NCBI GenBank assembly: GCA_050331735.1
Contig: JBHJGN010000077.1
Location: 1-64,000 of the forward strand
Direction: 5' to 3'
From: Cyanophyceae cyanobacterium
GTDB lineage: Bacteria > Cyanobacteriota > Cyanobacteriia > Cyanobacteriales > JBHJGN01
Length of the DNA stretch: 64,000 bases
Part shown: one piece after another, positions 13,346-36,857 of the stretch
Layout of the letters: every line of letters begins with the position of its first letter
Numbering within the stretch: position 1 is the first letter of the stretch
Program-made: the position numbers and the translations under genes
The notes under the pieces: generated by a model
What the model was told of the DNA's origin: nothing
Seen by the model: only the letters and a program-made list of their open reading frames with translations
Databases searched by the model: none

Positions 13346-14713
13346 ATGACCACTCTGCTAGTCAAAAACATTCGGACGCTAGTCACAATGGATGAGTCGC
13401 GACGGGAAATTGAACAGGGAGCTTTGTTCATTCGGGATAACGTTATCGAGCAGGTGGGTAAGACGGCAGAGCTACCGCCAACGGCGGATGAAGTTTTAGA
13501 CTTACAGAATCGTTACGTTGTCTTGCCGGGTTTAGTCAATACGCACCATCATTTTTTCCAAACCCTCACTCGCGCCGTTCCCAACACCCAAAACAAAGAA
13601 CTGTTTGGCTGGCTCCAAGGTCTTTATCCCCTGTGGTCGAATCTGACCGCAGAAGGGGTTTACGTCAGTGCTCAAATGGCGGCGGCGGAACTCATTCTCT
13701 CTGGCTGCACGACAGCGAGCGATCACCTCTACCTGTATCCCAACGGCGCTCGCTTAGACGACGAAATCCAGGCCATTCAGGAGATTGGCCTGCGCTTTCA
13801 TGCTAGTCGGGGCAGCATGAGCGTGGGTGAAAGTCAAGGCGGACTCCCCCCCGATTCTTTAACTGAATCAGAAGCCGACATTCTCAAAGATTCCCAGCGA
13901 CTTATTGAACAGTATCACGACAACAGCCGACACTCGATGCTGCGAATGGTGCTGGCTCCGTGTTCTCCTTTTTCGGTATCTCAAGACCTGATGCGAGAAT
14001 CGGCTCAGCTTGCTCGCGCCTATCCGGGGGTGAGACTGCACACCCATTTGGCAGAAACTCAGCCGGATGTCGCCTACAGCTTAGAAAAATTCGGCACGAT
14101 CCCCGGCGATTACGCCGAAGCGGTCGGCTGGCTAGGGAACGATGTGTGGCACGCTCACTGCGTTCACCTCAGTGACGAGTCGATTGGTAAATTTGCCCGC
14201 ACTGGTACAGGAGTCGCTCACTGTCCGGGGAGCAACATGCGTCTGGCTAGCGGCATCGCTCCGGTCAGGAAAATGCTCAATCGGGGAGTTCCAGTGGGTC
14301 TAGGAGCAGATGGTGCCGCTTCTAACGATGCGACTAATCTGCTCAACGAAGCGCGGCTGGCCATGCTGTTGGCTCGCGTTGGCAGCGGCGATCCCCTGGC
14401 GCTGACGGCTCGCCAAGTCCTGGAACTGGCCACTCGTGGAGGCGCTCGCGTTTTAGGGCGAGACGATGTTGGCTATCTGGCTCCCGGCATGTCTGCCGAC
14501 TTTATTGCCTTTAACTGCGATCGCCCTCACTTTGCCGGTGCTCTCCATGATTTGGTAGCCGCGCTGGTGTTCTGCCACTCCGACAGCGTTGACTACAGCT
14601 TCATCAACGGCAAAAAGATTGTCGAGCGGGGACGATTGACCACCGTTGAACTAGAGCCGCTAGTCGAAAAAAACAACCAACTCGCTCAGAAACTAGCTAA
14701 TGGGGAAAGGTAA
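13346..14713 (+). CDS. 8-oxoguanine deaminase-like amidohydrolase (AtzB/hydroxydechloroatrazine family)
   Basis: NTHHHFFQTLTRA, SDHLY, APCSPFS, HTHLAE, HAHCVH and DGAASND motifs; AAGGAG RBS. Confidence 0.88.
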   Translation: MTTLLVKNIRTLVTMDESRREIEQGALFIRDNVIEQVGKTAELPPTADEVLDLQNRYVVLPGLVNTHHHFFQTLTRAVPNTQNKELFGWLQGLYPLWSNLTAEGVYVSAQMAAAELILSGCTTASDHLYLYPNGARLDDEIQAIQEIGLRFHASRGSMSVGESQGGLPPDSLTESEADILKDSQRLIEQYHDNSRHSMLRMVLAPCSPFSVSQDLMRESAQLARAYPGVRLHTHLAETQPDVAYSLEKFGTIPGDYAEAVGWLGNDVWHAHCVHLSDESIGKFARTGTGVAHCPGSNMRLASGIAPVRKMLNRGVPVGLGADGAASNDATNLLNEARLAMLLARVGSGDPLALTARQVLELATRGGARVLGRDDVGYLAPGMSADFIAFNCDRPHFAGALHDLVAALVFCHSDSVDYSFINGKKIVERGRLTTVELEPLVEKNNQLAQKLANGER

Positions 14714-14940
14714 AGCGCCGCAGGCGCGGGGAAAGCAGCGAAGCTGCTGGGAAAGGGGGAAAGGGGAAGGGGAAAAGGGGTGAATGAATCAGCTTGCTCC
14801 TTAGCTCTGTGTTCTTTTCCCGTCGCGAACGCGACAATTTACCCCTTCCCCGTTCTGGAGGAACAGATTTCCCTTTCCCCTTTTCCCGCCGCGACAGCGG
14901 CTTTCCCCTGCGCCTGCGGCGCTTCCCCGTTCCGGAGGGA
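14701..14940. repeat. Composite palindromic/heptamer dispersed repeat, copy 1
   Basis: Outer inverted repeat 14715-14736 / 14900-14922, GGGGAAA heptamers, and mini-hairpins GCAGCGAAGCTGC and GTCGCGAACGCGAC. Confidence 0.8.
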
Positions 14941-14941
14941 C

Positions 14942-16756
14942 TTAGAAAGTAAACTGAGTCCGCACATGCCCCACAAAAATGTTGGCATTGTCGTCGAAGT
15001 TGTTGGGGTTGGCGATAAAGTAAAAGGCGGGATAAAGCCCGATGTTGTCGGTTAAGGGGAAGAAGTAAGCTCCTTCGAGCTCGTACTGGACTCCGCCATC
15101 GCCGCCGCCAGAGACGAAGAATTCCCGACCATCGCGGATCGAGTAGGGAATCAGATAGGAAACCGTGGCGATCGCTCCTTCTTTGAATAGGTCGGGGAAC
15201 GCGACTCCTAGCTGGAGCGACTGCACCTCTACTTCTTCAGATTCGCGTCCTTCAATATCGAGATTAGAGATGCTGTAGCCGTAGCGACCAAAAACGCCGA
15301 TGCGCTCGGTAATCAGCCAGTCGAAATTGACGCTAAAGACGTCAGCCGCGAGATCGTCGAGTTCTCCGCCTTCTGGTCCCGCATCAACGAAGCCGCCAAT
15401 CGGTTCTCCGGCTGCTCCGCCGATTTGCCCGTCGATGGCCTCGCGGCGAGCGCGGTTGTACAGAAACCGGAGGTTGATGCGATCGCTCGGAGAAAAGGTG
15501 ACTTCGGCAGTGATGGAATTGGTACCGTCGAATAAACCTTCTTCGGGATCGGAGGCGGTATTAAAGCCCGGAGTAAAGGCGAGAAATTCGGTATTTTCCC
15601 CGAGGTAGGCCGCTCCAAATCTAAACTGCTCAGAAATATCCCAAATGGCTGCTGCTCCCGAACCGCGGTCGATCATGTTGAGTAAGGTACTGCCGCTAGA
15701 GTTGAAGCTGCCGGCCCCGTTAAGAATAAAGGTAAAGCGATTATTGTCGAAGTAGCGATACCAGTTGATGCGGGGTCCAACCACTACCTGAAGACTATCG
15801 GTGGCCGCAAAGCTGTAGAACAGTTCCCGGATTAGGGTGTTATTGTCTCCCCCTCCAGCAGACTGGTCGAGGAAGGGAACCCCATAGGTATTAAATAAGC
15901 CTGCCGAGACAAATTGATTAGCGGGAGAGTTACTGTTACCAGAGGCAAGCTGAATGGTTAAGTTATCTCTTCCCGTAAAGGACGTGTTTAAATTCAGCCA
16001 CACCAGATCGCTTAAGACAATCTCCGGGTCGTCATCGACGACTCGCGTGACGGGTTCGCTGGCGGTTCGTTCGGCGCGAAACGCATCTCTGCCCTCGGCG
16101 AGAATATCGCCATCGGAAAATGCACCAGTTAAGTTGAAAAACGCTTGTCCAATCAGTTTAGTTGTTGTGGAAAACTGATTGTCTTCTAGGAACGCTACGC
16201 GACCCTCCAGATTATCAATCCGTCCGCCAATCGTTGCCAGTTCTGCTTCAAACTCCTGCGCTAACCTTTGGAGCTGCTCAAGATCTTCTGGCGCAATGCC
16301 GCCGCCGCTGGAAGCGATCAGGCTTTCAACGGCGTTTAAGCAGGAGTTCAACCCCGCCGCAAATTCATAGCGAGTCAGGGCGCGGTTTCCGCGATAGGTT
16401 TGGTCGGGGTAGCCTTCGATGCACCCGTAGCGCTCGACTAAACTCCGCAGCGCCTCAAAGGCCCAGTCTCCCGGAGAAATGTCCCGCAACTGCTCGACGG
16501 TGGTAACTTGCTGCATTGGGGTTGCTTCTAGCTCCCCTAGGTCGTTGTAGCTGTCCATGCGGTCGAGGGCGGGATTGTAGGGAAGCTGGGCGACTTGAGC
16601 CTCCCGCTCAGTTACCGTCTCCTCCGCAAAGGGCATTTCCACCGCGGTTGGGTCTAGCCCAGCACCGGAATGGGCGATCGCCGGAAGCGGCAAACCGGTA
16701 ATTATTGCGGCTGGCAACGTCCATTGCCAAATTTCAGTCCATCGCTTGCTCATCAA
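14942..16756 (-). CDS. Cyanobacterial outer-membrane porin (SLH domain + OprB-like barrel)
   Basis: Signal peptide, SLH (DWAFEALRSLVERYGCI...RYEFAAGL), coiled coil, QFSTTTKL, and C-terminal RTQFTF. Confidence 0.93.
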   Translation of the reverse strand: MMSKRWTEIWQWTLPAAIITGLPLPAIAHSGAGLDPTAVEMPFAEETVTEREAQVAQLPYNPALDRMDSYNDLGELEATPMQQVTTVEQLRDISPGDWAFEALRSLVERYGCIEGYPDQTYRGNRALTRYEFAAGLNSCLNAVESLIASSGGGIAPEDLEQLQRLAQEFEAELATIGGRIDNLEGRVAFLEDNQFSTTTKLIGQAFFNLTGAFSDGDILAEGRDAFRAERTASEPVTRVVDDDPEIVLSDLVWLNLNTSFTGRDNLTIQLASGNSNSPANQFVSAGLFNTYGVPFLDQSAGGGDNNTLIRELFYSFAATDSLQVVVGPRINWYRYFDNNRFTFILNGAGSFNSSGSTLLNMIDRGSGAAAIWDISEQFRFGAAYLGENTEFLAFTPGFNTASDPEEGLFDGTNSITAEVTFSPSDRINLRFLYNRARREAIDGQIGGAAGEPIGGFVDAGPEGGELDDLAADVFSVNFDWLITERIGVFGRYGYSISNLDIEGRESEEVEVQSLQLGVAFPDLFKEGAIATVSYLIPYSIRDGREFFVSGGGDGGVQYELEGAYFFPLTDNIGLYPAFYFIANPNNFDDNANIFVGHVRTQFTF

Positions 16757-16807
16757 TACCTCACACCTAAATTAATCGAACTTTTAGCGAATAACGCGTT
16801 ATTTTGC

Positions 16808-16864
16808 TGCATACGGCATACAAGCTAGAACAAAATTTAGGGGGCAATTGTTAAGCAGGCTACA
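16808..16864 (-). promoter_or_regulatory. Putative NtcA-activated, GntR-repressed porin promoter
   Basis: On the minus strand, GTA-N8-AAC (16863-16850) is followed after 22 nt by TAGCTT (-10; 16827-16822), then operator TGTATGCCGTATGCA (16822-16808). Confidence 0.65.
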
Positions 16865-16960
16865 ATTATGGACAAACGTGTAGGGATTCGATTACATTCC
16901 AAAAAGAGTTCCTTGGGGCTGAAACAGCTTCAGTTTCTAAGAATTCCGATGCGAGAGAGT

Positions 16961-17004
16961 TTGCTCCCTCCCCTTGGCTCGCTATAATGTGTATGCTGTA
17001 TGCA
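16961..17004 (+). promoter_or_regulatory. gntR promoter with autoregulatory operator
   Basis: TTGCTC (16961), 16 nt, TATAAT (16983-16988), then TGTATGCTGTATGCA (16990-17004). Confidence 0.65.
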
Positions 17005-17051
17005 AGAGAAACAGCCTGTTTTCTAGTTTAAAGTGGTTTTCGGCTTGACCT

Positions 17052-17750
17052 ATGGTTGCTATTCAACGAAGTAAATCCCTACGAGAGCAAGTCTATCAAG
17101 CCCTGCGTAAAATTATTTTGGCAGGAGATTTAGCATCAGGAGAACGCATTGTCGAAACCCAGTTAGCTCAACGGTTGAAGGTGAGCCGGACACCGATTCG
17201 TGAAGCGATCGGGCAACTCCAGCGAGAGAAGCTAATTGTTTCCAACCTCAACGGCGGTTTTAAGGTCGCGACGCTCTCGACAGAAGATGCTATTCAGCTC
17301 TACGACTGTCGGATTGCGCTAGAGCAGCTCGCGATCGCGAGCGCTTGCGAACAGGCGACTCCTCAGCAGTTAAAACAATTAGAAAACTACGTGCTGTCAG
17401 CAGAATTAGCCGAATCGGAGCTGAATCAACGAGACAGCCTAGAGCGATTGGAATTAGACTATCAGTTTCATCGCCTGATCGCCGAAATTTCGGGGAACCA
17501 ATGGTTGCTCACTCTGCTCGATCAGGTATTTGACAAGATGGCCCTGCTTAGGATTCAGACTACCAAACATAATCCGCAGGTGTTGGAAATCCGGTTGGAG
17601 CATCGGCAAATCTACGAGGCGATCGCCACCAGAAACCCGGAGTACGCCCGAAAAACGATTAAAGAGCATCTGAGCGCGAGTAAAGTCAGAGTGGTGCGGG
17701 AACTAGAAAACTTGCAGCAACAAACGCAGAATATTACCGAAGGAGAATAA
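17052..17750 (+). CDS. GntR (FadR/FCD) transcriptional regulator
   Basis: wHTH LAQRLKVSRTPIREA and FCD domain (DYQFH, EH..IY). Confidence 0.95.
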   Translation: MVAIQRSKSLREQVYQALRKIILAGDLASGERIVETQLAQRLKVSRTPIREAIGQLQREKLIVSNLNGGFKVATLSTEDAIQLYDCRIALEQLAIASACEQATPQQLKQLENYVLSAELAESELNQRDSLERLELDYQFHRLIAEISGNQWLLTLLDQVFDKMALLRIQTTKHNPQVLEIRLEHRQIYEAIATRNPEYARKTIKEHLSASKVRVVRELENLQQQTQNITEGE

Positions 17751-17756
17751 CGTTCA

Positions 17757-18161
17757 ATGACAGCAGCGATGGCGACCAAGCGAGTGTTTATCTGTGGTTC
17801 GGCGCTCAGAGGTCAGCCCGATCATCAAAATCTTCAGTCAGCAAAATTTATTAAGCCAACTAAAACGCTGCCGCAGTATCGCCTCCACGCCGCCGAAAAC
17901 GGGTGGCATCCAGCCATTTATGCTGTAGCAGAGGGCGGCGTTAGTATTCCGGGCGAAATTTATGAAATGACCGACGAGCAGTACGACTACCTGCTTGCCA
18001 ACGAGCCTCCTCATATGTACCCCGACACCGTTAATCTGGAGTCAGGAGAACAGGCGATCGCCATGCTCTACCCCCAAGAACTAGTCGAAAAACATCGCTG
18101 GCCCGATATTTCCGATATTGGTGGCTGGGCAGCCTATAAACTTTCACAGCAGGAAGAGTAA
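17757..18161 (+). CDS. Gamma-glutamylcyclotransferase-fold protein resembling the allophanate hydrolase C-terminal domain
   Basis: VFICGSALRGQPDH, T.P.YRL, IPGEIY and GGWAAY motifs; starts 6 nt after gntR. Confidence 0.7.
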   Translation: MTAAMATKRVFICGSALRGQPDHQNLQSAKFIKPTKTLPQYRLHAAENGWHPAIYAVAEGGVSIPGEIYEMTDEQYDYLLANEPPHMYPDTVNLESGEQAIAMLYPQELVEKHRWPDISDIGGWAAYKLSQQEE

Positions 18162-19586: not shown

Positions 19587-19767
19587 ATCCAGCGTTTCTA
19601 ATGGTTTAAGCAAAATATTTTATTGTTAGTGGTTAAGCTTGTTTTTAACTAACCACTACCCCAAGCTCAACTTCTCAAAGTGCAACTAATGAAGTAGATT
19701 GGATTTTACTTGGGTTTTCTTGAGTTAGAACAATGTATGTGATTGATTGTCATAAGGTATACAGGAT

Positions 19768-19950
19768 TCATGGTAATAATTTGATGTACTCTCTTCCTCG
19801 ATACTTAAGAGTAAAACCGTTTTTAAGCGTTGCATTCCTCGTCTTTCCAATCTGATAAGAGACTCCCCGATACTTGCCATTAATCGTTTTATCGGTTGCT
19901 GAGCGGGTTAAGTTAGATTGGTAAGAAATACCGCGATAAATGAGCTGCAT
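19768..19950 (-). CDS. DUF4278-like small protein
   Basis: MQLIYRGISY...GKYRGVSY...LKYRGREY repeats; AAGGAG RBS. Confidence 0.8.
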   Translation of the reverse strand: MQLIYRGISYQSNLTRSATDKTINGKYRGVSYQIGKTRNATLKNGFTLKYRGREYIKLLP

Positions 19951-20044
19951 CTTTTTCTCCTTAAATTTTCGTGTTGTTTTTTTAATGGCTACCAAGCGAA
20001 CTAACTGATGCACTTATAGCTAAAACGATGGCAGGTTAAAGAGT

Positions 20045-22075
20045 TCATCTAAAGGTTGTCGGAACAGAAACAGTAGACACCCGATTTTGAGCAAAATGTT
20101 CTAATAACATGCGGTGATAAAATACATAGCTACCACCCACTTTTTTCATCAACAGTCGTTCTGAGGCGTAGTCAAGAAAGTGAGCTAGATTCCTAGGAAT
20201 TAAACCCTTAGCCCATAATATAAGTCGTAGGTTGACGTGTTGAATGCAGGCCATTCCGCCTCCAAAAAGTAGCCCTAAAATCAGTCCCCAACTGATTACA
20301 GAAGTGATTGACTTTAATCCTTTAGGAAATAAACTAATCGGAAAAGGAAACAAAATGATTGGGATCAAAATTAGCCAACTAGCTAATGCGACGATCGCGG
20401 CATTCGTGACCGATTTCCGAATACCTTGGTTAGGGATAGTTTTTGTCTCTATTTCTGAGCCTCTTAGCCCACGGATTAATCCGATAATTAGTCCTAAAAT
20501 TACTCCTAAAAATAGTCCAAATACTATTATTGTTAAGCCATTGCTTGGCTCTTTCCAAGTCAGGTAACACCACACTACACTAATCGGGGACAAAATTCGA
20601 CTCCAGCTTAGTCCATCCCTTAAACCATTAAGCAGATCTTTTCGCGTTTTTTTCCAAGGCCACGTCAAAGTTTCAAAGGTTTTTATTTCTGCTTTATCGC
20701 TTCCAAACCATAACAAAACAAGTCCCCATGTTACTCCGTTGATCGCTAATACTTTAAAAAGGTTAATTTTTTCGTTATGCAAGTCTAAAACATAGCCTAG
20801 TAACAAGATTAATAGAACAACCAGCATCCCCATCAGTATACTTCCCACTCGATAAAGTCTTCTTTGGAGATTAGGCTCCAACCAATAGGGCTGCATTCTC
20901 TCAATTAAAAAGACAGATTGAGCTCCCTGAGACATCCGCTGTGCCAGCCAAGTTAGCCAGTATATTGACCTATCTTTCTGGTATTGCTGAACTCCTTTAC
21001 GCTTGAACATCCGATCAATATAAGTATCGAACAGGTGATGACGGCGTTCTTCACTTGAGCAAAACTGCTGTAATAGATCTTCTACTGACCAATCTTGATA
21101 AGCAACACTCATAATACTGAGAATTAGAGGAGTTTGGGCAAAACGTTCTAATTCTCGATCTTGCTGTAATAGCGTTCTTAAGCCAGCGAGGGAATCACCT
21201 GCTTCTGCTAAAAAACGATCTACTTGTTTTTTTGAAAGAGGTTTAATACAGATAGCACTGCTAAGTTGCAAACGCGCTGTCAGTGCCTCATAATCCTCGA
21301 CTCGGCTACAAATCACCATCTCAGTAATATTATGAGTTGTGATAAATTGATTTAAAGCTCTAACGCAAGCGTTGCGCTTTCCAGCTTGTACTTCATCTAA
21401 TCCATCAAGAAATAGAATTAGCTGTTCCTGTTCAATCCAAGGTTCGCTTAGCGTTTTGGGAACTTGATATTTATCTTTTAGTTCTTCAATTAGCCATTTT
21501 TCTATGGGTTGCTGCTTGTATTCCCAAGAAGATAAGTTAAACACTACGGGGATAGGCTTCGTTAAATCTTTTTCGGTTTGAGCGATCGCTTTTTTGGCTA
21601 GCTGTAATAAAGCAATCGTTTTTCCTGAACCAGGCTCTCCTAAAATTAATAGGGTTTTACCTTGTCCGGTTTGATTCAAAATATCTGTTGATTTAAGTTG
21701 GTCAAAAGACTTATCCAAGTCTATTGCTATATCTTCAACGCCTGTAAAAGGTCTAATTACCGCACTTGAATTTTTTTCCCAGTCGAGGTTAATGACATTA
21801 TTTCTATAGAGAGAAGAGTTGAGAAAACCCTCGATCCAAGACTCTTTAACTTTGCGCAATAAGGTGATTCGCTGTCTATATTCGTGTTGAGTTAATACTT
21901 GGCGCACTACTGGAGTTTGACCTAACCAGTCCAGATCATTCGTGACGCGATCGCGATATTGCTCGCGACTGAGAATGGTAATGTTGTGATTGTGAACAGT
22001 GTTATTGTCACCAACCGCAAAGCCTTTTGCTGAAGCTTCAAACCTTTGATTGTATTTAGCACTACGTTCAACCAT
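20045..22075 (-). CDS. NACHT NTPase with N-terminal amyloid-like motif and C-terminal transmembrane region
   Basis: Walker A GEPGSGKT, PVVFNLSSW, Walker B LFLDGLDEV, PLILSI, several TM helices and GGSYVFYHRMLLEHF; GGAG RBS before MVERS. Confidence 0.9.
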   Translation of the reverse strand: MVERSAKYNQRFEASAKGFAVGDNNTVHNHNITILSREQYRDRVTNDLDWLGQTPVVRQVLTQHEYRQRITLLRKVKESWIEGFLNSSLYRNNVINLDWEKNSSAVIRPFTGVEDIAIDLDKSFDQLKSTDILNQTGQGKTLLILGEPGSGKTIALLQLAKKAIAQTEKDLTKPIPVVFNLSSWEYKQQPIEKWLIEELKDKYQVPKTLSEPWIEQEQLILFLDGLDEVQAGKRNACVRALNQFITTHNITEMVICSRVEDYEALTARLQLSSAICIKPLSKKQVDRFLAEAGDSLAGLRTLLQQDRELERFAQTPLILSIMSVAYQDWSVEDLLQQFCSSEERRHHLFDTYIDRMFKRKGVQQYQKDRSIYWLTWLAQRMSQGAQSVFLIERMQPYWLEPNLQRRLYRVGSILMGMLVVLLILLLGYVLDLHNEKINLFKVLAINGVTWGLVLLWFGSDKAEIKTFETLTWPWKKTRKDLLNGLRDGLSWSRILSPISVVWCYLTWKEPSNGLTIIVFGLFLGVILGLIIGLIRGLRGSEIETKTIPNQGIRKSVTNAAIVALASWLILIPIILFPFPISLFPKGLKSITSVISWGLILGLLFGGGMACIQHVNLRLILWAKGLIPRNLAHFLDYASERLLMKKVGGSYVFYHRMLLEHFAQNRVSTVSVPTTFR

Positions 22076-22091
22076 TTTAAGTCTCCAGCAG

Positions 22092-22463
22092 CTAAGAGCC
22101 AAATGTATTTGTTTGAGTGTTGCGATCGCCGAATTGACCCCCTTTAACTTCCCCTTGAAACAGCATGTTATATTTACCTGCTGCTGTTTCTTTAGGATCT
22201 AACTGTTTTAGTATTTCCTGAGCTTTTTCAACAATTTTCTCGTCTCGATCGGCACCAACCTCAGTTAATTTCTTTTTGAGTGGAGCTTCATAGGTGTCAG
22301 GGTCTTTTTCGTATTCTTCTAAAACCATTTCTGCTTTTGGTTCGCCATCAAATTTATGCTTAATTAAAGTTTTTAAGCCTTGATAAGCATCTGGAGCAAC
22401 ATCTCTAGCCGCTTTTACTGCTCCAGCAACCAGTGCAGCAAGAATTAAAGAAATTGGTTCCAT
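22092..22463 (-). CDS. Bell-like helical protein with C-terminal RHIM/BASS-like amyloid motif
   Basis: MEPISLILAALVAGA...DAYQGLKTLI N-terminus; C-terminal GKYN..F.G.VKG.QFGDRNTQTNTF. Confidence 0.8.
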   Translation of the reverse strand: MEPISLILAALVAGAVKAARDVAPDAYQGLKTLIKHKFDGEPKAEMVLEEYEKDPDTYEAPLKKKLTEVGADRDEKIVEKAQEILKQLDPKETAAGKYNMLFQGEVKGGQFGDRNTQTNTFGS

Positions 22464-22617
22464 TACTCATTATTCCTCTGTTAGTTCAATTTTTGGAGTT
22501 GAATTATTCGCTAGATTCAACCCGAACGATAATTTTAAATCTGCAACAAATTTAAAGAAGTAAAGGAATAGGAGGTTTTCTGATTTAATTACACGCCATA
22601 TCTGCTATCTGCGTTTA

Positions 22618-22702
22618 ATATTAATTTGATTCTTTATCCCTCGATCTCATAAAGCTCATTCCGAAGCTCTTGAGAAATCTCATCTAAAAACTCATAGAAA
22701 AG
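22618..22702 (-). promoter_or_regulatory. Repeat-array promoter upstream of the Bell-NACHT operon
   Basis: CTCAT units on + at 22646, 22655, (22667), 22679 and 22691; minus-strand -10 TAATAT at 22623-22618. Confidence 0.6.
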
Positions 22703-22708
22703 TTGGTC

Positions 22709-25700
22709 TTAAACAAAGATCGATTTATAAATGCGGTTCTGAACTTTTAAAGTTCCCTGTTGCTTAACGACTAGCCCCGATAACAGCAGTTCTCTTTCCT
22801 CGGGGCTATTATCTGAAACTATTGCACCTCGGTGTAAAATTTGTCGATAGAGTTCTAGTAGTCGGACGGACTGTTTGCTCTTGAGCAGGCGATCGCGGAT
22901 CGTTCTCAAATGCTCGGGTTCATCCTGATATTCCCAATTCTCGACGATCTTGGTTCGCACCAAGTTTTCGAGCCACTCGGCTTCTTGGTTAGCAGGGATT
23001 GAAGAGGAAGCATCGCGGATAAGTTTGCAGAGCTTTTGGGTTAAAAAGGGCTGTCCGTTCGTCCAGGCAAACACTTCTTTGAGCAGCGTTTGTGGATTAT
23101 TCACTTTGTCCATTAATCCTTGCAGCAACGGTTGCGCTTCATGCTGTTTAAAGCCCTCTAGTTGAATCGCCTGACCGATGTTAAAGGGGGTTCTTTGATA
23201 GTCGGTTGCTAAATCGCTCGGAGTAGCGACACCAAAAAAAGCAAAGGTTAGGCGTCGATACTCTGGATCGATACTGCGCTGATTGTAGCAGGAGCGTATC
23301 AGCGCCAAAAAGTCATTAACGGGAAAATTCAGGCTTAAGAGGCTATCAAGTTCATCGATAAAAATAACTAGATTGGGAAGAGCATTATCTTGGCACTCGA
23401 CTTCAACTAACAAAATTTCTCGAATAAACTGACTCAATTTTTGTACTGGAGAAAGATCTTCTTGCTCTCGCCACCAGGTTTTTAAATCGACTGTCCTCAG
23501 CAAACCAAAGCCATACCATAGCTCTACGGCTAATCCCTTATACCATTGTTCGGGCGTAACGCTTTCGCTGCCAATCCGAGTCAGATCGATCGCTCCGCAG
23601 CTAAACCCTTCGTGCTGGAGGTGACGCATCATGCGCACCATCAAGCTTGACTTGCCCATCTGCCGAGGATTGAGAACATGACAAAACTCTCCTCGTTTTA
23701 ACGCTTTATAAAGACAGCGATCCGCCGAGCGTACCACATAAGTCGGGGCATCCATCGGCAAACTTCCCCCCACTTGATAGTCAAACTCAGAGGATTGTTC
23801 GGCACTTCTGAGCAGTTCATTTTCAAACATGAGTTCTGCTTGAGTCGCTTGGAGAATTTCCAAGGTTTGCGATAGCTCTTGAGTGCGTTCTGAAACTCGT
23901 TGTTCGAGGGTGCGATTGTAGCCTGCTAGCTGTTTGTAGAGACGGGCATTTTCGATAGAGATAGCGGCTTGAGCGGAAAGAATCTTTAAAACTTCTACGC
24001 GATCGCTAGTAAAGGCACCGCTGGTTAAATTATTTTCTAAATAGAGAATCCCGATCAGTTGATCTTGATGAAGCAAAGGAGTACAAAGAATCGATTTGGG
24101 GTGAGTCGCCACTATGTAAGGATCGCCGCTAAACTGTTTTGCCTCAGTCGCGTTGTTTAGCACAACGTTTTTGTGGGTGCGGGCAACATAGTGAACGATG
24201 GCAACGGATAGAATTGGTGCTTGGCAATCGTCTACAGAGTCAATGGCAATTGATTGCAGAACAGCCACCTCATCAGCCTCTACTGCTCCTCCCGCTTCAA
24301 TTGTTAAGTGATCCTCGTTTGCTAGAATCAGAAAGCTTTTTTGAGCGCCAGCATTCTCAATGACAGTTTTCATCAAATTTTTGAGCAATTGGCTCAGCGC
24401 GATCTCCCGCGAAATTGTCTGCGAAGCTTTGATAACGCTGGCTACATCTAATCCTGCCTGGGTCAAGGTTGAAGATAAGCGGTTGGTCGATTCTGAGGCT
24501 AAATGTGGGTATCGTTGCTCTAGGTGCTTCACCTTGGCGTGTGCGCCCCATCTTTGGTAGGCATAATGAGCATCCTGTATGTAGTGGCGAGCAACATGAT
24601 TCTCCTGAGCTAGGTAAAATTGACCAGCCAGTTCGCAGGCAAGAGCTTCTTCATTAAGATAGTTGTTTTCCTGAGCCAGCATAATAGCCTGGTCATACTG
24701 CTCTCGGGCTTCTTGAACTTGCCCCAACACTCGGCAACGTTCTGCCTCGACTAAATGAAGCTTGTGTAAAAAATTCATGGGAGCACTTCGCGCCCACGTT
24801 CGTATCTGCTTTTGATTACTGGCTACTTTTGCTAAAATTTGTTTCTGTTCAACGGCTAAAGACTGAGGGTAGACCGCCAGTCGTGCTAAAGAGTCATAAA
24901 AGTAGAAGAGGGGACAAAGCAGCGTTCCTGTAGAGGTGTCTACATAGGGTTCAGCACAAACAGCATTTTCAAACGCTTCCTGATACTGATTAAACAGGTA
25001 GCAGAGAATTAGTTTGTTGAGATACAGATAGTAAATAGTTGAGCGTTGATTTCTTTGCACATAGAGAGGAAGTTCCTGTTCTTCGTTATAAACCTCCCCG
25101 ACTAGACGGTAGGGTTCGTCTTCTCCAATCAGGTTCAGAACAATTTGATGGATCAGAGTGTCGTTTCTGAGCTGATTAATGGTACTGCTATAGGTAGTGA
25201 TTTCCTGCTCTAATTCAGGTAGGGGACGAGCAGCGCTGAAATAGGAAAGATAACAATAGATTTGGATAGATAGAGCGGCATGTTCAAGATCTCCCGTGGC
25301 TAAACCACTGTGATAGGCAGCTAATAAGGCGCTAAACGTCTGGCTAATGTGGAATTTCCCAGGAATTGTAAAATAGGTGGTCACAAAGAGGGTCATCGCT
25401 TTGAGTTCTTTCGCGTTTAACCGCTCTAACAGACGCAAAGCAAGCTGACCGAATTGGTAGCCAAGCTCAAAGTTTGCGGCTCTACAGAGAATCAATCCGT
25501 AATTCGCATAGGCATGGGTATGAGCAACAGCGTTGCCATAGTGAAGAGCCAAATTAATTTGGGCAAAGATAATGAGCGGCAACAGGTGAGGACGGGCTAT
25601 ATAGGCGGCAGGGCAGAGAGTGAGTAGGATACGGGTAGCGGCAATTTTGGTCGGATCGCTCATCAAAGGCGCATCCAGTAAGTCTTGAGGCTGTTTTTGT

Positions 25701-28330
25701 GCCAAGGATTGTTGCAGCGTCTCGAACCCCAAGCTCACGTCAGATTCAGAAGGCTGCGTCGGTAAATTCACGCCGAGGATTTTCAGCACCGAGATGCCAA
25801 GCTGGAGGGCTTCGGTAAATTTTTTCTGGGCTTTGAGCGCTTGGATTTCGATTTCGTGAACTTTCACCTGCTCTAAGTCAGATTGAGCCTGTTGCCGTAC
25901 CGCCTGAACTAACTGCTCCATCCGCCTAAAATCGTGGTTGAGATAGGCTGCCTCTGCGGCGGCGGTGTGTAGAGCTAGCGATAGGTCGTATTGCTGCCAG
26001 TTTGCTTCAAGTAGTTCTAAGCCGACGGTAAAGTAGGTGAAGGCAGATTGATGGGCGGCTGATGCTTTCGCGATCGCTCCTGCCTGGAGATTTAAGCGGG
26101 CGAGTTGCTCTCGCTCTGGACGGTGGGAGAGCAGTGACCGTCCCTGGTTGAGCTGATTAACAATCGTAAAGGGGTCCGATTCTAGGGGGGTGTGTTTGAG
26201 CAACCGTTGACCAATCTGCCAATGCACAGCCTGGGTTTCTGCCTGGGGAATGAGGCCATAGACCACCTGCTGGATGCGATCGTGGGCAAACTTGTATCCG
26301 GCTGATTTTGATAAACCGTTTACCTCCAGCGACCTTAGCGTGTAGCTGTCGTTCAGGGGTAGAATATATCCCTCGGCGATCGCTGCCTCTAAATCTACTG
26401 CTACTTCCCGAGCCGTTTTTTCAGAGATAATCGCTAATCGGTCTAAAGTAAATCGGTTCCCCAGGCAGGCGGCTAATTTCAACGCGGCCTGAGTTGGTGG
26501 CGTTAGCTGTTTGACCTTCTCCGCCATCAATTGGGCGACATTATCCGCAATCGGCTGGGTTTGAATCTGCTTCAAATCCCACCGCCATTGCCCTCGTTCG
26601 TCATCAAATTCGATCAGCGATCGCTCGTGTAGAGATTTCAAAAACTCGCTGACAAAAAAAGGATTGCCCCCCGTTTTTGCCTGTAACATCGTTGCCAGCG
26701 GACTGGCGGTGGTGGAGTCAACCCGAAAAGTATCGCTGAGCAGTTGGCGAGTATGGGTTTGGGTTAGGGGCAACAGCGAAATTTGATTAACGGTGATAGA
26801 AGACTCGATTTCCCTTAAAGTGAGCAGGAGCGAACTCTCGCTTACTTCGTTGTCTCGATAGGCTCCAATCAGCAGCAAGTATTGGCTATTTCCAGCCGTG
26901 AATAACCGTTGAATAATTTCAAGCGTGGCTCGATCTGCCCACTGCAAATCGTCTAAGAAGATGACGAGGGGATGTTCCGGTTGAGTAAAAACTTTAACAA
27001 AATCTTGCCATACCCGATGAAAACGATTTTGCGCCTCTGTCGGCGCAAGGTTTGGGAGGGCTGCTTGGGAACCGATAATCAATTCTAAGTCGGGCAGAAC
27101 ATCGAGCATCACCTGTCCATTTGCCCCCAAAGCCACCAACAGTTTTTCCCGCCATTCTGCAATCTTGGGTTTACTTTCAGTCAGTAGCTGTTGGATTAAT
27201 GACTGAAACGCTTGAATTAGGGGAGCATAGGGAATGTTGCGCTGTAGCCGCTCAGATTTCCCAGAGATAAAGTAGCCTCGCTGACGGGTCAGGGGCTGAT
27301 ACACCTCCTGCACCAGAGCGGATTTACCCACCCCTGAATGTCCGCAAATCACCATCATTTCGCTAGCGCCTTGGCTCACGCGATCGCAGGCAGCTAATAA
27401 GCGAGCCAACTCTGCTTCTCTTCCGTAGAGCTTTGGGGAAATTTGAAACCGATCGGAAATATCCACTTGACCTAATGGAAAGGAAGCAATTTGCCCTTGG
27501 GTTTGCCACTGATGCCAACAGTGTTCCAAATCTGCCTTGAGTCCAAAAGCCGATTGATAGCGATCTTCGGCGTTTTTGGCCATCAGCTTGAGCACAATGT
27601 CTGAAATTGCCGGGGGAAGGTTGGCATTATGTTGATGGGGAGGAAGCGGAGATTTGGCAATATGGCCGTGAATTAATTCCAGAACATCCTCTGTAGGAAA
27701 GGGCAACCGACCAGTGAGCAGTTCATAAAAGGTTACCCCGAGAGAGTAAAAATCCGTTCGCTCATCGATTGCCCGATTCATCCGCCCCGTCTGCTCTGGG
27801 GAAATATACGTTAATGTTCCCCTTAATACCTTTGGATGACGAGTTGAGTTTTTCGGGGTCAGTAGGAGCGAGCTACCGAAGTCGATCAGTTTGACCTGCT
27901 CAGTCGCGGGACTCCAAACAATATTGGACGGGTTGATATCGTTGTGGACAACGTGCTGTTGATGCACTTGGGCAAGAATACGAGCAAGTTGAATGGCAAG
28001 CGGGAGAAACTCCGTGACAGAGAGAGGGCGCTCTTCAATCACCCGATCGAGAGCTTGCCCCCCAAAATCCTCTAAAACCAAGAGCCAGCGGTCCTGCTCA
28101 TTCTCTAAACCATAGACTTGTACTACCCCTGGCAAGTTAAGTTGATTGAGTTTTTTGGTGGTTTCATACTCCTGTCTAAACCAAGCAATTTCCTCGGGTG
28201 TCGGGTAAGGCTGTTTGAGAAATTTGAGAATGACGGGTTGACAATCTGCTAATCGTCGTCCGCGATAGACTTGCGAGCTAGCGCTTTCGTGAAGCTGTTC
28301 GATAATTTGGTAGTCTAAAACACAAATCAC
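22709..28330 (-). CDS. Ser/Thr kinase - STAND ATPase - TPR-like - GAF - AAA_35 multidomain protein
   Basis: [11 protein letters not shown] and [12 protein letters not shown] (kinase); GHSGVGKS and DDLQWAD (ATPase); ILYLENN...QAAISIENA (GAF); YQVGGSL..DAPTYV and RQMGKSSL (AAA_35). Confidence 0.9.
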
Positions 28331-30039: not shown

Positions 30040-31419
30040 CTAGCTCTCAAAAACCGATGTGATGGACAGATGTTGTCCCTTGGTAAAATACTGCCGATAC
30101 AGTTCGCACCCGGCGATCGCGCGATTGCCGCAAAGTTTAATTAACCCCATACTGCATAGCTTGTGGGTTTGAATCGGATCTAAGGAAACAGGTTCAGCGG
30201 CATTTAGAACCTGATGAAGAGCCTGCATCAACTCAGGCTGTTGTTCTAGGGTGGCCCAATGACGCTGCAGGTGATGAGCATATATTCCTGTCGCCGTGAA
30301 CGCCGTTTTTAGCAGTTGCGATAGCGTTATTTCTCCCCGATTCAGATGATAGAGTGCCAGATTCACCAGTGCAGGATGACCCCCGACTAGAGACATCAGT
30401 TGCTGGGCTTCTTTGTCATCCGTCCAGTCCAGTCCGTAACGTTGGGCTAGGAGCTGTACTTCCTCTGGAGTAAAATCCTCTAACTGAATGGGTAGCCCGA
30501 CATTGAATGGGGATTGGTTACAGTCGAGAGGAACGTAAATTTCTGTTGAGTGAACCACAATCAGACGCAGCTTTCGCCAAATCGGTAATCTTTTTGTTTC
30601 TTCGTACCACGACCGCAACAGCGGTAAAAAATCCTGCGCCACCTGCGGATGCTCGAAAATCTGGTTCACTTCATCTAGCGCCAAGACGAGGGGAGCGTCG
30701 ATTGACTCTAATAAATAGTCTCGAAAGTAAAGGGTGCAGCTCAGATTACTGCCCAAATCTTTGTCCCAATACTCGTCTAGCATCGGTTTAAGCTCAAGCT
30801 GGCGAGAGATACTCGTACACAGCCAGCGCAAAAATTGATTCAAATTACCCAAAATTGATTGCTCGACTTGCTCTAGGTTCAGGCTGACGGTATGGTATCC
30901 CAGGTGAGAGGCGTAGTTAAGGCTCCTCAGCAGCAGTGAGGTTTTCCCCATTTCTCTCGGAGCCTTAATCCGAATTAACGCTCCTGATTTTCTCACTTCT
31001 CGCTCGACTTGTTCCTTAACAGAAGAGCGTTCGAGGTAAAAGGGAGAGTCAAGCGGAACTGAGCCGCTGGGGTAGCAAGGTGACGGATCCTGGTTGACAT
31101 GGGGGAACGCTTCCGCCAGAGGTGACCTTAAAGGTCTTGTTTGAGGGTCGGGTCTGGTGGTGACGTAAGACTCCAGTAATCCCCGACAGTTCTTTTTGGT
31201 CACGCGCTGACCGACGACCTTAGAAAGTCGCTGATACAGCTCTGGGGCAGCAACGTTGGTAAAGTAGCCAGGACTATAGCCTGCCTCGATTGCAATCTGG
31301 TTGTAGGTTTTATACTGCCAAATACCCTGTAGGATCAGCATTTCTGCGGGATTGAGGGGTCGATTTTGGCTCTCAATGAGCTGGCGGTCAACAATTTTAC
31401 AGAGATTATCTAAATTCAT
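30040..31419 (-). CDS. N-terminal HTH (vWA-MoxR-associated type) + AAA_35 STAND ATPase
   Basis: LILQGIWQYKTYNQIAIEAGYS...LSKVVGQRVTKKN (HTH); GSVPLDSPFYLER, APREMGKTSL, LALDEV, SPFNVG and GGHP (AAA_35). Confidence 0.85.
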   Translation of the reverse strand: MNLDNLCKIVDRQLIESQNRPLNPAEMLILQGIWQYKTYNQIAIEAGYSPGYFTNVAAPELYQRLSKVVGQRVTKKNCRGLLESYVTTRPDPQTRPLRSPLAEAFPHVNQDPSPCYPSGSVPLDSPFYLERSSVKEQVEREVRKSGALIRIKAPREMGKTSLLLRSLNYASHLGYHTVSLNLEQVEQSILGNLNQFLRWLCTSISRQLELKPMLDEYWDKDLGSNLSCTLYFRDYLLESIDAPLVLALDEVNQIFEHPQVAQDFLPLLRSWYEETKRLPIWRKLRLIVVHSTEIYVPLDCNQSPFNVGLPIQLEDFTPEEVQLLAQRYGLDWTDDKEAQQLMSLVGGHPALVNLALYHLNRGEITLSQLLKTAFTATGIYAHHLQRHWATLEQQPELMQALHQVLNAAEPVSLDPIQTHKLCSMGLIKLCGNRAIAGCELYRQYFTKGQHLSITSVFES

Positions 31420-33726: not shown

Positions 33727-33911
33727 GTAGCAGGCAAGTGATGGTAGGTTGGTCAGTCTTACATGAACTGAGTATTCGGACATACCGCGATGGCATGAGT
33801 AAATAGCCCTGAAGGGTTCCAGTCCCGTTAGCCGTAAGCTGTTTCAGTGTTACCCACACCCTCCTCGTCTCTTTCCTATTGGCTCCATCAATTACAACAC
33901 CGCTCAAAATT

Positions 33912-35306
33912 ATGGTACAGCCCAATCGAGAATTAGCCTTAGAAGAAGTTCAGTCTGAAGCCTCCTCTACCATCGAATCGGATCTAATTTACGGGTTAGA
34001 ATCCCGCCCGCCATTTGTCGAATCGGTGTTCGTTGCCCTACAGCACGTTTTTGCCTGTTTTGTCGGCATTATTACACCGGGTTTAATTATTTGCTCGGCG
34101 CTACAGGTACCGCCAGCCGATACAACCTTTATTCTCAGTATGTCCTTGGTTGTTTCCGGAATTGCGACCTTTATCCAGGCCAAAAGAATTGGACCAGTTG
34201 GTTCGGGACTGTTAAGTGTGCAAGGAACGAGCTTTGCTTTCCTCGGACCGATTATTGCCACCGGATCAGCCGTGACGGGGGCGGGGGGAACTCCTCAAGA
34301 AGCACTGGGGCTAATTTTTGGCCTCTGCTTTTTTGGGGCTTTTGTTGAAATTTTTATCAGTCGCTTTCTGCATCTGGCTAACAAAGTCATTACCCCATTA
34401 GTAACGGGAGTCGTTGTCACCCTGATTGGCTTGACCTTAATTCGGGTCGGAATTACCAGCATTGGCGGTGGCGTACCGGCCCAAAATAACGAAACTTTTG
34501 GTAGCCCAACCTATTTAGGGGTAGCGTTTTTAGTGTTAGCGGTCATTGTTGTGCTCAATAGCCTCAACAACAGCTTTTTGCGGATGTCGTCGATTGTGAT
34601 TGGTTTAGCAGTAGGCTATTTGGTTTCTATTCCCCTGGGACTGGTAGACTTTAGCAACCTGGCAAATTTACCAATAGTGGCCTTTCCGATTCCCTTCCGC
34701 TATGGCTTTGGATTTGACTGGGGAGCGTTTATTCCCTTTGCTTTTCTGTATTTGATTACGGCCATTGAATCTATCGGCGACCTAACGGCAACGTCGGCCA
34801 TTTCTGGCGAACCGATTGAAGGGGGCACCTATTTCCGCAGACTCAAAGGAGGGGTATTGGGCGATGGCGTGAACTCAATGATTGCGGCTTGTTTGAATAC
34901 GTTTCCTAACACAACCTTTAGCCAAAATAACGGCGTGATTCAGCTAACTGGAGTAGGCAGTCGCTACGTCGGCTACTTTATTTCTGCGATTTTTATCATT
35001 CTCGGTTTGTTTCCGCTGGTGGCAGGAGTTTTTCAGGCATTACCTCAGCCGGTGTTAGGCGGTGCTACTATCGTTATGTTTGGAACAGTCGCCGTGGCGG
35101 GAATTAAGATTCTCTCCTGCGTTAATCTAACCAAGCGTAATTCCATCATTCTCGCCCTGGCGTTGGGCTTGGGCTTAGGCGTAACCTTCGTGCCGGAAAT
35201 TCTTGATACTTCGCCCCCGCTGGTGAAGAATATTTTTTCTTCTGGGATTTCCACAGGAGGAATTACTGCTTTGTTGCTGAACCTGGTTTTACCCGGTCGA
35301 GAGTAA
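33912..35306 (+). CDS. NCS2/NAT xanthine/uric acid permease
   Basis: ALQH motif, ESIGD and NAT signature TFSQNNGVIQLTG; start taken at MVQPN. Confidence 0.92.
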   Translation: MVQPNRELALEEVQSEASSTIESDLIYGLESRPPFVESVFVALQHVFACFVGIITPGLIICSALQVPPADTTFILSMSLVVSGIATFIQAKRIGPVGSGLLSVQGTSFAFLGPIIATGSAVTGAGGTPQEALGLIFGLCFFGAFVEIFISRFLHLANKVITPLVTGVVVTLIGLTLIRVGITSIGGGVPAQNNETFGSPTYLGVAFLVLAVIVVLNSLNNSFLRMSSIVIGLAVGYLVSIPLGLVDFSNLANLPIVAFPIPFRYGFGFDWGAFIPFAFLYLITAIESIGDLTATSAISGEPIEGGTYFRRLKGGVLGDGVNSMIAACLNTFPNTTFSQNNGVIQLTGVGSRYVGYFISAIFIILGLFPLVAGVFQALPQPVLGGATIVMFGTVAVAGIKILSCVNLTKRNSIILALALGLGLGVTFVPEILDTSPPLVKNIFSSGISTGGITALLLNLVLPGRE

Positions 35307-35526
35307 TGGGGAGTAGTTGATGGTTGATTGTTCCTCAATCATCACGCTTGTATTCCTGACTTTACTGGTTTGAAGAGCGTGTCTGGTGGAAAAATTGCTT
35401 GGACGCAAATTAGATTACAGACACAGAAGATTTAACAGTAGATGATTAAAGCAATCAGTCACCTGATGAAGCAAAGAATATGTACTATCCACCTACTGCT
35501 GTTACTTATACCTAATTTATAAAGCA

Positions 35527-36690
35527 ATGTACGAACTTAAAGCAGTAATCATCGGCGCGGGCATGGCAGGATTAGCCGCAGGAATTGCGCTGCGTCAATC
35601 GGGCTACAGCGTCGAAGTTTACGAAAAAACCAGGAAGCTGCGCCCTGCGGGGGCGGGGATTTCTTTGTGGTCGAACGGCATCAAAGTACTCAACAAACTC
35701 GGACTGGGCAAGGAAGTTGCGGCCATCGGCGGACAGATGAACCGCATGGCCTACCGCACCCATACCGGTGAATTGCTCAACGATGTCAACCTTCTTCCTC
35801 TCGTTGAACAAGTGGGTCAAAGACCCTATCCCGTCTCGCGAACTGACTTACAGCACATCATGCTCTCGGCCTTTGGCGAAGGAGACGTGCGCTTAGGAAT
35901 GCGCTGCGTTGAGGTCAAGCAGGACCAAGACAGCGCCACAGCAATTTTTGAAGACGGCAGTACAGCAACCGGAGATGTTATCATCGGCGCAGACGGCATT
36001 CACTCGGTTGTCCGAACCTATCTGGCGGGTCAGAAAATTGAGCCGCGCTACGCGGATTACGTCAACTGGAACGGCTTGGTAGAAGCCAGTCCCGATTTAG
36101 TCGATAAAGACGCTTGGATAATCTACGTTGGCGAGGGCAAACGCGCTTCGATGATGCCAGTGGGGAATAACCGCTTTTATTTCTTCTTTGGCTGTCCTAA
36201 ACCCAAGGGAACAGAAATTCCCCCCGGTGGCATTCGTGCGGAGTTGGAAGCCACCTTTAAAGGCTGGGCGCAACCCGTCCAAAACCTGATTCAGCAACTC
36301 GACCCCGAAGACACGAATCGCTTAGAAATTAGCGACCTCGATCCGCTTCCTCATATCGTCAAAGGCAGAATTGCCCTCGTCGGAGACTCCGCCCATGCTA
36401 CGACCCCGACCCTGGGACAGGGAGGCTGTCAGGCGATGGAAGATGCCGAAGTCCTCTGTCGCTACTTAGTAACAACCAACATCAGCGTTGAAGATGCCCT
36501 AAAGCGCTATGAAGCCGAACGCAAGGAACGAGTCTACAACCTGACTCTAAAAGCTCGCAAGCGCACCGATACGATTTACAACAAAGACCCAGAAGCCACT
36601 CAGCAGTGGTACGAGCAACTCAAGCACGAACAGGCTCAAGATGTCACTGATGCGCTTGCTAAAGTGATTTTAGCAGGGCCGTTTCATTGA
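35527..36690 (+). CDS. hpxO: FAD-dependent urate hydroxylase
   Basis: GAGMAG, GAGISLWSNG, RPYPVSR, YVNWNG, YVGEGKRASMMP and GDSAH..TPTLGQGG; purine-catabolism context. Confidence 0.88.
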   Translation: MYELKAVIIGAGMAGLAAGIALRQSGYSVEVYEKTRKLRPAGAGISLWSNGIKVLNKLGLGKEVAAIGGQMNRMAYRTHTGELLNDVNLLPLVEQVGQRPYPVSRTDLQHIMLSAFGEGDVRLGMRCVEVKQDQDSATAIFEDGSTATGDVIIGADGIHSVVRTYLAGQKIEPRYADYVNWNGLVEASPDLVDKDAWIIYVGEGKRASMMPVGNNRFYFFFGCPKPKGTEIPPGGIRAELEATFKGWAQPVQNLIQQLDPEDTNRLEISDLDPLPHIVKGRIALVGDSAHATTPTLGQGGCQAMEDAEVLCRYLVTTNISVEDALKRYEAERKERVYNLTLKARKRTDTIYNKDPEATQQWYEQLKHEQAQDVTDALAKVILAGPFH

Positions 36691-36693
36691 AGT

Positions 36694-36852
36694 CGCTCCG
36701 CGACGGGGAAAGGGAAAAGCAGCGAAGCTGCTGGGGAAAAGGGCAAAGGGGAAGGGGAAAAGGGGAGATGAATTAGCTGGTTCCTAAACCCGATGTTCTT
36801 TCCCCGTCGCGAACGCGACAGTTTTCCCTTTCCCCGTTCCGCACCGGACATT
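36694..36852. repeat. Composite dispersed repeat, copy 3
   Basis: GCAGCGAAGCTGC (36719-36731), GTCGCGAACGCGAC (36806-36819) and GGGGAAA heptamers. Confidence 0.78.
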
Positions 36853-36857
36853 AATTG

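Follow-up and report, generated by a model that had tools for sequence, protein, structure and literature searches.

A cyanobacterial NACHT protein with membrane helices and a neighbouring Bell-type protein share a BASS3-like motif in a probable two-gene amyloid-signalling module

Bell/NLR amyloid pairs are well catalogued in bacteria, and as far as the available text of one recent study covers them, the role of such a pair has been tested in a single E. coli system only (Ibarlosa et al. 2024, bioRxiv 10.1101/2024.11.07.622273). The BASS motifs that link the two proteins are described as G/N/Q/T-rich and about 25 residues long, and the available text of the survey that defines them reports that motifs of the BASS1 and BASS3 classes form fibrils and prions, with the NLR side converting the Bell side (Dyrka et al. 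2020, bioRxiv 10.1101/2020.01.06.895854). In E. coli, a Bell-type protein and its motif-sharing partner give abortive-infection defence, and the accessible part of that report presents this pair, Bab/Agp, as the sole one with a demonstrated defence role; in the Bab fold, four helices cup hydrophobic helix 1 (Ibarlosa et al. 2024). The fungal HET-S / NWD2 system couples a pore-forming effector to signalling by templating (as summarised in the available text of Ibarlosa et al. 2024). A related gene pair lies in a 64,000-nucleotide stretch of a Cyanophyceae cyanobacterium genome (GenBank assembly GCA_050331735.1, contig JBHJGN010000077.1, positions 1 to 64,000), hereafter the window. It encodes a small helical effector with a C-terminal BASS3-like motif and a NACHT receptor that carries a matching motif at its N-terminus and a block of predicted membrane helices within its NACHT module.

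The two motif copies resemble each other closely. Effector residues 96-121 align without gaps to NACHT residues 6-31 with 11 of 26 positions identical, and when the whole proteins are compared by BLASTP this segment ranks first (11/25 identical, E 4e-4). The original prediction, drawn from positions 21980-22463 (the small gene and the first 32 NACHT codons), had started from this match and from two co-oriented genes set 16 nucleotides apart; realignment, BLASTP and shuffles bear out the former, the open reading frames (ORFs) and the spacer the latter. Since the peptides are short and G/N/T-rich, they might be two low-complexity ends that match by chance. Shuffled controls speak against this: the BLOSUM62 window score of 55 is reached by none of 2000 shuffles of the small protein compared with the whole NACHT protein, and the 11 identities by 8 of 2000. 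When only the last 30 residues are shuffled and their composition is kept, 0/10000 shuffles reach the score or the identity.

The match is also specific within the genome. A hidden Markov model (HMM) was built from 32 unique Bell-side tails, taken from other genomes only with the window excluded (the tail of locus L006, which is that of the homologue P0092 discussed below, is included), and was run with filters off on 102,512 stop-to-stop frames of at least 30 residues from the window's 5.57-Mb genome. The best match is the effector tail (E 3.7e-17, 64.1 bits) and the second is the NACHT frame at protein residues 5-29 (E 4.7e-5, 25.4 bits); the third-best match genome-wide has an E-value of 0.63. 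Because shuffles fail to reproduce the match and a profile built from outside finds just these two sites, the tail-head match is real and specific in this genome. With the same layout recurring in 58 related loci, the chance explanation is refuted and keeps practically no probability. Both the effector family and the receptor family are single-copy in this genome. The pair is compact, intact and single, and therefore raises no issue of cross-talk between paralogues.

Co-variation of tail and head across related loci was named beforehand in the original prediction as a point on which it could fail, and it is observed. Eighty related loci were fetched; 7 lack a Bell ORF (by the search pattern) and 7 lack a downstream co-oriented ORF, several of these because the contig end is reached, leaving 66 scorable. 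A match was counted at a score of at least 35 and a start no more than 260 nucleotides downstream. The downstream N-terminus matches the effector tail in 58/66 scorable loci, and the remaining eight comprise seven low scores and one match at 400 nucleotides. Eight classes of tail can be told apart, and a change of tail class goes with a change of head. Within the largest class, the score of tails is 54.6 with non-cognate heads of the same class versus 22.8 with heads of other classes, and 0/10000 re-pairings reach the cognate sum; the pairs were picked by match score, which inflates the cognate values, and the class effect is still plain by eye. Related loci also occur on contigs labelled Actinomycetota, Chloroflexota-type and Betaproteobacteria-type.

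That the motif acts as an exchangeable address is seen clearly in loci where the protein families stay constant. A search with the receptor body over 401 genomes of the phylum finds it in 66 of them, and the best 29 loci were inspected. In three of these (L083, L084 and L086), identity to the window's proteins is 55-59% for the receptor and 47-48% for the effector along its helical domain; the motif at both ends is of another class, and the match between tail and head persists (scores 65-86). Both ends therefore change class together with the effector and receptor families constant. This other class is not among the listed entries of the PMC8086366 supplement, in the part that was available. 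Two further loci retain a matching tail on a different partner, one on a separate CHAT-like protein (L087, score 76) and one on a 140-residue protein (L099, score 66). The other 24/29 loci score at most 36, and their receptor N-termini, judged by eye, are fused CHAT-like, kinase-like, TIR-like or cyclase-like domains. An N-terminal CHAT domain (protease) likewise replaces the motif in 3/12 scanned homologues with the NACHT and six-helix architecture (NACHT-6TM), one of them 74% identical.

Other arrangements of the motif occur among the same loci. In L088, a matching motif lies inside a 350-residue CHAT-like protein (seen by eye, unscored). In L085 and L091, an upstream protein of 146-150 residues resembles the receptor head at its N-terminus, not its C-terminus, and ends in a hydrophobic C-terminus, possibly a case of the motif pair in inverted order.

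The small protein is, by homology and predicted helices, of the Bell type. Its homologues number 360 at E<=1e-3 among 382 candidates and are mostly cyanobacterial, the closest coming from Pleurocapsales-type and filamentous cyanobacteria. A precomputed PF20701 (HetE-N) label (version.5) is attached to the effector itself and to 119/120 listed homologues, and its nearest clusters in the Atlas are also PF20701 (score 0.95, 201/256 features). Where the tails are aligned, two Asn residues, N115 and N119, are invariant. The AlphaFold2 model (17-row alignment, mean predicted local distance difference test score, pLDDT, 75.5) has five main helices and a short sixth at residues 3-20, 24-37, 42-53, 55-68, 75-88 and 90-94, with block pLDDT of 76-90. 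The hydropathy maximum over 19 residues (1.65) is in the window starting at residue 1, and Glu2 precedes the hydrophobic helix 3-20. In the available text of Dyrka et al. (2020), Bell, HeLo, MLKL and plant CC domains share a signature in which position 2 or 3 is acidic and a hydrophobic helix comes next. The size also fits: in a Bell protein, about 100 of some 120-140 residues form an all-alpha domain, and the effector has 123.

The closest link to published motif data runs through a homologue from Phormidium willei (P0092), which is 64% identical to the effector over 98% of its length. At the C-terminus of P0092, the final 30 residues are identical to entry C03_s077 / A0A168V066_9CYAN in the accessible BASS data of PMC8086366, and according to the main text of that article these data are Bell-side motif samples. 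C03 is read here as BASS3 because its entries closely resemble the Frankia peptide by which the accessible part of the article illustrates the RHIM-like BASS3. Neither the tail nor the head of the window pair is among the listed entries of the supplement, in its available part. The original prediction of a Bell-like effector thus agrees with the predicted helical bundle, the hydrophobic helix 1 with Glu2, and the identity to P0092. Fold searches with the Bell-like model and a sequence profile run against the Protein Data Bank (PDB) returned nothing specific, and no solved Bell-type structure was matched; Bab (9H9V) was not among the fold-search matches listed, the content of the library on 9H9V being uncertain.

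The larger protein is a NACHT receptor, as had been proposed: Pfam NACHT (PF05729) matches with 41.2 bits against a cut-off of 26.7. The Walker A motif GEPGSGKT (146-153) and the DGLDE motif (224-228) are present, with residues invariant in a 20-row alignment, and DGLDE fits the D[GAS]hDE signature of NACHT domains (Kibby et al., bioRxiv 10.1101/2022.07.19.500537, available text). The receptor has 1235 homologues at E<=1e-5 among 8000 candidates scored. Hydropathy peaks lie at residues 412-430, 437-457, 516-534, 560-578 and 590-611, and AlphaFold2 (model mean pLDDT 65) places helices at 401-430, 439-459, 478-506, 513-537, 551-575 and 590-622. Beyond this predicted membrane block, the model shows a helix, two short strands and a helix, and H654 is nearly invariant in the 20-row alignment; this helix-hairpin-helix end looks like the end of a winged-helix domain. 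In other bacterial NACHTs, substituting the corresponding winged-helix histidine is reported to be activating (Kibby et al., available text). Residues 1-58, motif included, have pLDDT below 50. The three closest homologues, 69-77% identical, keep a BASS3-like head and add a C-terminal zinc ribbon, and the head is conserved in P0122, P0123 and P0124.

Such a receptor is rare among the partners of Bell-type effectors. The partner NTPases of the 58 matching pairs, 29 typed from whole proteins and the other 29 from their first 500 residues or fewer, comprise 48 nSTAND1, 5 NB-ARC, 1 NACHT, 1 with WD40 only and 3 unassigned. The sole NACHT partner (L024) is the window's orthologue in a Pleurocapsales strain. 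The combination of NACHT-6TM and Bell is a minority form.

The motif pair, its specificity in the genome, its co-variation, the family assignments and the gene arrangement are established in this analysis. Amyloid formation, templating, membrane attack, toxicity and a defence role would follow from what is described for the family. The pair is taken, with fairly high confidence, to be a two-gene Bell/BASS amyloid-signalling module that works as follows. Six helices, inserted ahead of the final portion of the winged-helix domain, would hold the NACHT NTPase in the membrane, with the BASS3-like motif disordered in its first 30 or so residues. An unspecified cue, plausibly sensed in or at the membrane, would cause the NACHT modules to oligomerise, and the N-terminal motifs, once gathered, might fold into a cross-beta nucleus. 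This nucleus would template the matching C-terminal motif of the 123-residue Bell-type protein, and the conversion could free its hydrophobic helix 1 for membrane attack, so that the cell would be killed or arrested, probably as abortive infection. The analogy is drawn because BASS1 and BASS3 motifs have yielded fibril, prion and NLR-to-Bell conversion data and because Bab/Agp confers abortive infection.

Several observations weigh against this reading or qualify it. The G-phi-Q-phi-G core is incomplete in both copies, GGQFG in the tail and GFAVG in the head, each keeping 4/5 positions; the published C03 entries also lack Q or a hydrophobic position in places. Pfam RHIM has no match at E<=10 in the small protein, three of its homologues or the 58-residue NACHT head, so that the pair counts as RHIM-like via BASS3 and not as RHIM itself. 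The small protein has no Pfam match at E<=0.01, at 12.6 bits it falls short of the cut-off of 25 in the local Pfam model of PF20701 (version.3), and PADLOC and NCBIfam return no match to it. The receptor carries no repeat family in Pfam, so no TPR, WD, ANK or LRR sensor is seen; it is an NLR-related NACHT of the transmembrane (TM) type, without the repeats of an NLR as described by Dyrka et al. (2020). It also lacks the zinc ribbon of its three closest homologues.

The scores of the window pair itself belong with these points. In the BASS3-like class, cognate pairs average 62.9 versus 59.2 for the rest, and 2/20000 permutations reach the cognate value, the rows being related to one another. 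The window pair scores 55 against that cognate mean of 62.9, which places it among the more diverged, and better partners exist in other genomes, where the window tail scores up to 67 and the window head 64. Co-variation, clear from class to class, is thus weak inside the class, and there is a class code with no private code for the window pair.

These results support the original prediction, with qualifications. Its BASS/RHIM-like motif holds in so far as both ends fit C03 by profile; the Pfam RHIM model is unmatched, and the core is off by one position per copy. A check against Bell, BASS and RHIM profiles gives the same division, since the tail profile finds both ends, RHIM finds none and HetE-N stays under its cut-off in the local Pfam. 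As for the NLR receptor, the NACHT NTPase is there, and six membrane helices stand in place of a repeat sensor.

The deviating cores would also suit an ordinary docking tag, i.e. a shared peptide that binds one-to-one, for example by strand addition, with no self-propagating amyloid templating. The structural models would allow this, as the tails are merely disordered in them: AlphaFold2 gives the effector tail no secondary structure, with pLDDT below 50 at residues 103-106 and 108-120. A complex prediction of tail 88-123 with head 1-40 scores 0.02 against a mark of 0.32 and weighs neither way. A docking tag is nevertheless quite improbable: homologous tails are filed in a class with demonstrated fibrils, prion behaviour and NLR-to-Bell conversion (Dyrka et al. 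2020, available text), and the composition and length of the peptides, G/N/Q/T-rich and about 25 residues, are those described there for BASS motifs.

Base composition sets the pair apart from the rest of the genome. Its GC content is 39.4% versus 49.5% for the genome, within the lowest 1.1% of 2252 equal-size windows, and the region 19614-22708, which holds the two genes and the flanking spacers, ranges from 32 to 40%. GC content at third codon positions is 0.24 and 0.34 in the pair versus 0.48 in the neighbouring kinase gene. Because this composition is foreign to the genome, it suggests that the pair was acquired horizontally and recently. A search for flanking repeats that would mark an insertion gave just short, probably chance matches.

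A recently acquired cassette might also be decaying and no longer work, and both the GC content far under the genome mean and the missing zinc-ribbon end of the receptor could be seen that way. No remnant of the zinc ribbon lies 3' of the receptor stop: compared by tblastn with the C-termini of four homologues, the DNA shows no similarity past that stop. Decay is very unlikely, in view of frames that are open and full length, two motifs that are kept, and Walker A and DGLDE residues that are intact and invariant. Other members of the family, such as P0139 (648 residues), likewise end without a zinc ribbon.

The foreign composition bears on how the pair came about as well. Of the heads compared, whose median score is 51.5, that of L024 is nearest the window's (score 139), and next come two from nSTAND1 receptors, L017 (101) and L002 (98). 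It seems that the 5' end coding for the motif has been transferred from one receptor type to another, unrelated one. Because these nSTAND1 heads are near the window's and the GC content of the pair is foreign, a broader idea can be put forward, one that is possible and for now rather doubtful: the membrane NACHT might sense an envelope or membrane cue and fire a pore-forming Bell protein locally via a RHIM-like relay, and the Bell gene together with the receptor 5' end would be a travelling cassette, grafted onto nSTAND1-WD40, NB-ARC and NACHT-6TM receptors and moved between genomes.

Single-chain and CHAT-bearing relatives were also seen. P0243 (751 residues) combines a Bell-like domain, a single hybrid motif and nSTAND1-WD40 in one chain and is a natural intermediate, by fusion or fission, of the two-gene layout. 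P0242 (341 residues) and P0251 (336 residues) consist of CHAT, a linker, a Bell-like domain and a C-terminal BASS-like motif; because CHAT precedes the Bell-like domain, the hydrophobic helix that is otherwise N-terminal is internal in them. CHAT is found on 7 of 12 longer homologues.

The natural role of the module is less certain than its mechanism, and phage defence has about even chances of being that role. In a colonial cyanobacterium, the same mechanism might instead underlie recognition of self and non-self, or cell death that is developmental or induced by stress. Bell domains and BASS pairs are linked to multicellular lineages (Dyrka et al. 2020, available text), the nearest homologues belong to cyanobacteria that are filamentous or of Pleurocapsales type, PADLOC lacks a model for the small protein, and PADLOC and NCBIfam give the receptor only weak partial NTPase matches. 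The neighbouring genes, by Pfam name, belong to purine catabolism and signalling, with no known defence genes among them. A role of this kind is nonetheless the unlikelier option, given that abortive-infection defence was the outcome of the one functional assay of a Bell-type protein carrying an amyloid motif that is reported in the accessible text of Ibarlosa et al. (2024), and that low GC content, patchy spread and the swapping of effector modules are typical of defence genes.

The layout of the pair, 2.4 kb in all, is given in Table 1. Both reading frames are open and full length. The ORF list offers an alternative upstream receptor start, a TTG at 22102; the ATG at 22075 is the likely start because the N-termini of three close homologues (MVEHSAKYN, MSEYNQ and MVKYSQ) support it. 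One split gene, or read-through, was considered and rejected, as the frames differ, each gene has its own motif copy, and the split layout is found in 58 loci. Promoter-like and terminator-like signals over 19600-22900 are no more frequent than in shuffles.

Table 1. Features of the Bell/NACHT gene pair (window coordinates)
Feature	Position	Strand	Basis
Gene, 123-residue Bell-type effector	22092..22463, stop included	minus	ORF list; reads 22463 to 22095, stop 22092-22094
Helical Bell-like domain, residues 1-94, predicted, with hydrophobic helix 1 and Glu at position 2	22182..22463	minus	AlphaFold2, hydropathy
Effector-side putative amyloid-signalling motif (BASS3-like), residues 96-121	22101..22178	minus	Match to NACHT head, profile
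16-nucleotide spacer between effector stop and receptor ATG, with GGAG at 22083-22086	22076..22091	minus	Sequence read
Gene, 676-residue NACHT receptor with inserted membrane block	20045..22075	minus	ORF, Pfam NACHT 2e-10; reads ATG 22075 to 20048, stop 20045-20047
Receptor-side motif, residues 6-31	21983..22060	minus	BLASTP, alignment, profile
NACHT NTPase core, residues 141-291	21203..21655	minus	Pfam PF05729, 41.2 bits
Six long hydrophobic helices, predicted, residues 401-622	20210..20875	minus	Hydropathy, AlphaFold2
Winged-helix-like C-terminal end of NACHT module, predicted, residues 630-663	20087..20188	minus	AlphaFold2

The surroundings consist mainly of signalling and catabolic genes. 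Upstream of the pair, 22709-28330 on the minus strand encodes an 1873-residue protein with kinase, AAA_16, GAF and AAA_35 domains, also described as kinase-STAND-GAF-AAA_35, and 30040-31419, on the same strand, encodes a separate 459-residue AAA_35 protein. Both lie on the strand of the pair and at least 245 nucleotides away. Genes of purine/ureide catabolism type by Pfam name flank this signalling cluster on both sides (13346-18161 and 33879-37367), namely amidohydrolase, GntR/FCD regulator, allophanate hydrolase C-terminal domain, xanthine/uracil permease, FAD monooxygenase and OHCU decarboxylase. No evidence for a joint function of these flanking genes with the pair was seen. Directly 3' of the receptor gene, an 81-residue ORF (19768-20013, minus strand) contains repeated segments like YRG(I/V)SYQ. 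Among public sequencing runs, no RNA runs are listed as holding the pair, which has no bearing on its expression; one DNA run is listed and may stem from the source sample.

Compared with known systems, the pair is of the Bell/BASS3 kind, and its receptor is a TM-type NACHT of an already catalogued sort. With the Bell/NLR BASS3 pairs of Dyrka et al. (2020), it shares a small helical protein with a hydrophobic helix 1 and a C-terminal motif of about 25 residues, and an adjoining co-oriented STAND NTPase with the same motif at its N-terminus and a short intergenic distance. It differs from them in that the receptor lacks TPR or WD repeats and carries a six-helix membrane block inside the NACHT module, and in that the G-phi-Q-phi-G core is one position short in each motif copy. 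Bab/Agp (BASS11) of E. coli ECOR25 resembles it in the small Bell-related helical effector and in the C-terminal motif common to the N-terminus of the adjacent sensor, whereas that sensor, as the available text describes it, is different from the window's and the host is E. coli (Ibarlosa et al. 2024).

HET-S / NWD2 of Podospora anserina likewise places a NACHT receptor with an N-terminal amyloid motif beside an effector with a C-terminal one (Ibarlosa et al. 2024, available text); unlike the window pair, it is fungal and has a HeLo effector domain, a HRAM-type motif and a WD-repeat receptor. The RHIM of animal necroptosis kinases is further removed, with Pfam RHIM unmatched and the window copies reading GGQFG and GFAVG, and convergence is not excluded as the source of the RHIM-BASS3 likeness in the available text of Dyrka et al. 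(2020). On the receptor side, the window protein fits the description of bacterial NACHTs with a TM region (Kibby et al., Supplementary Discussion category 4), whereas the accessible part of that work mentions no amyloid or Bell domain in this sense. The literature searched, as far as its available parts go, describes no TM-type NACHT that bears a BASS motif; the supplementary tables of Dyrka et al. (2020) may list such pairs. What the window adds to these systems is a TM-type NACHT linked to a Bell effector through a BASS motif, i.e. the RHIM-like motif class joined to a receptor predicted to be seated in the membrane. It thus offers a convenient test case for what a membrane NACHT senses and for whether templating works from a membrane-anchored platform.

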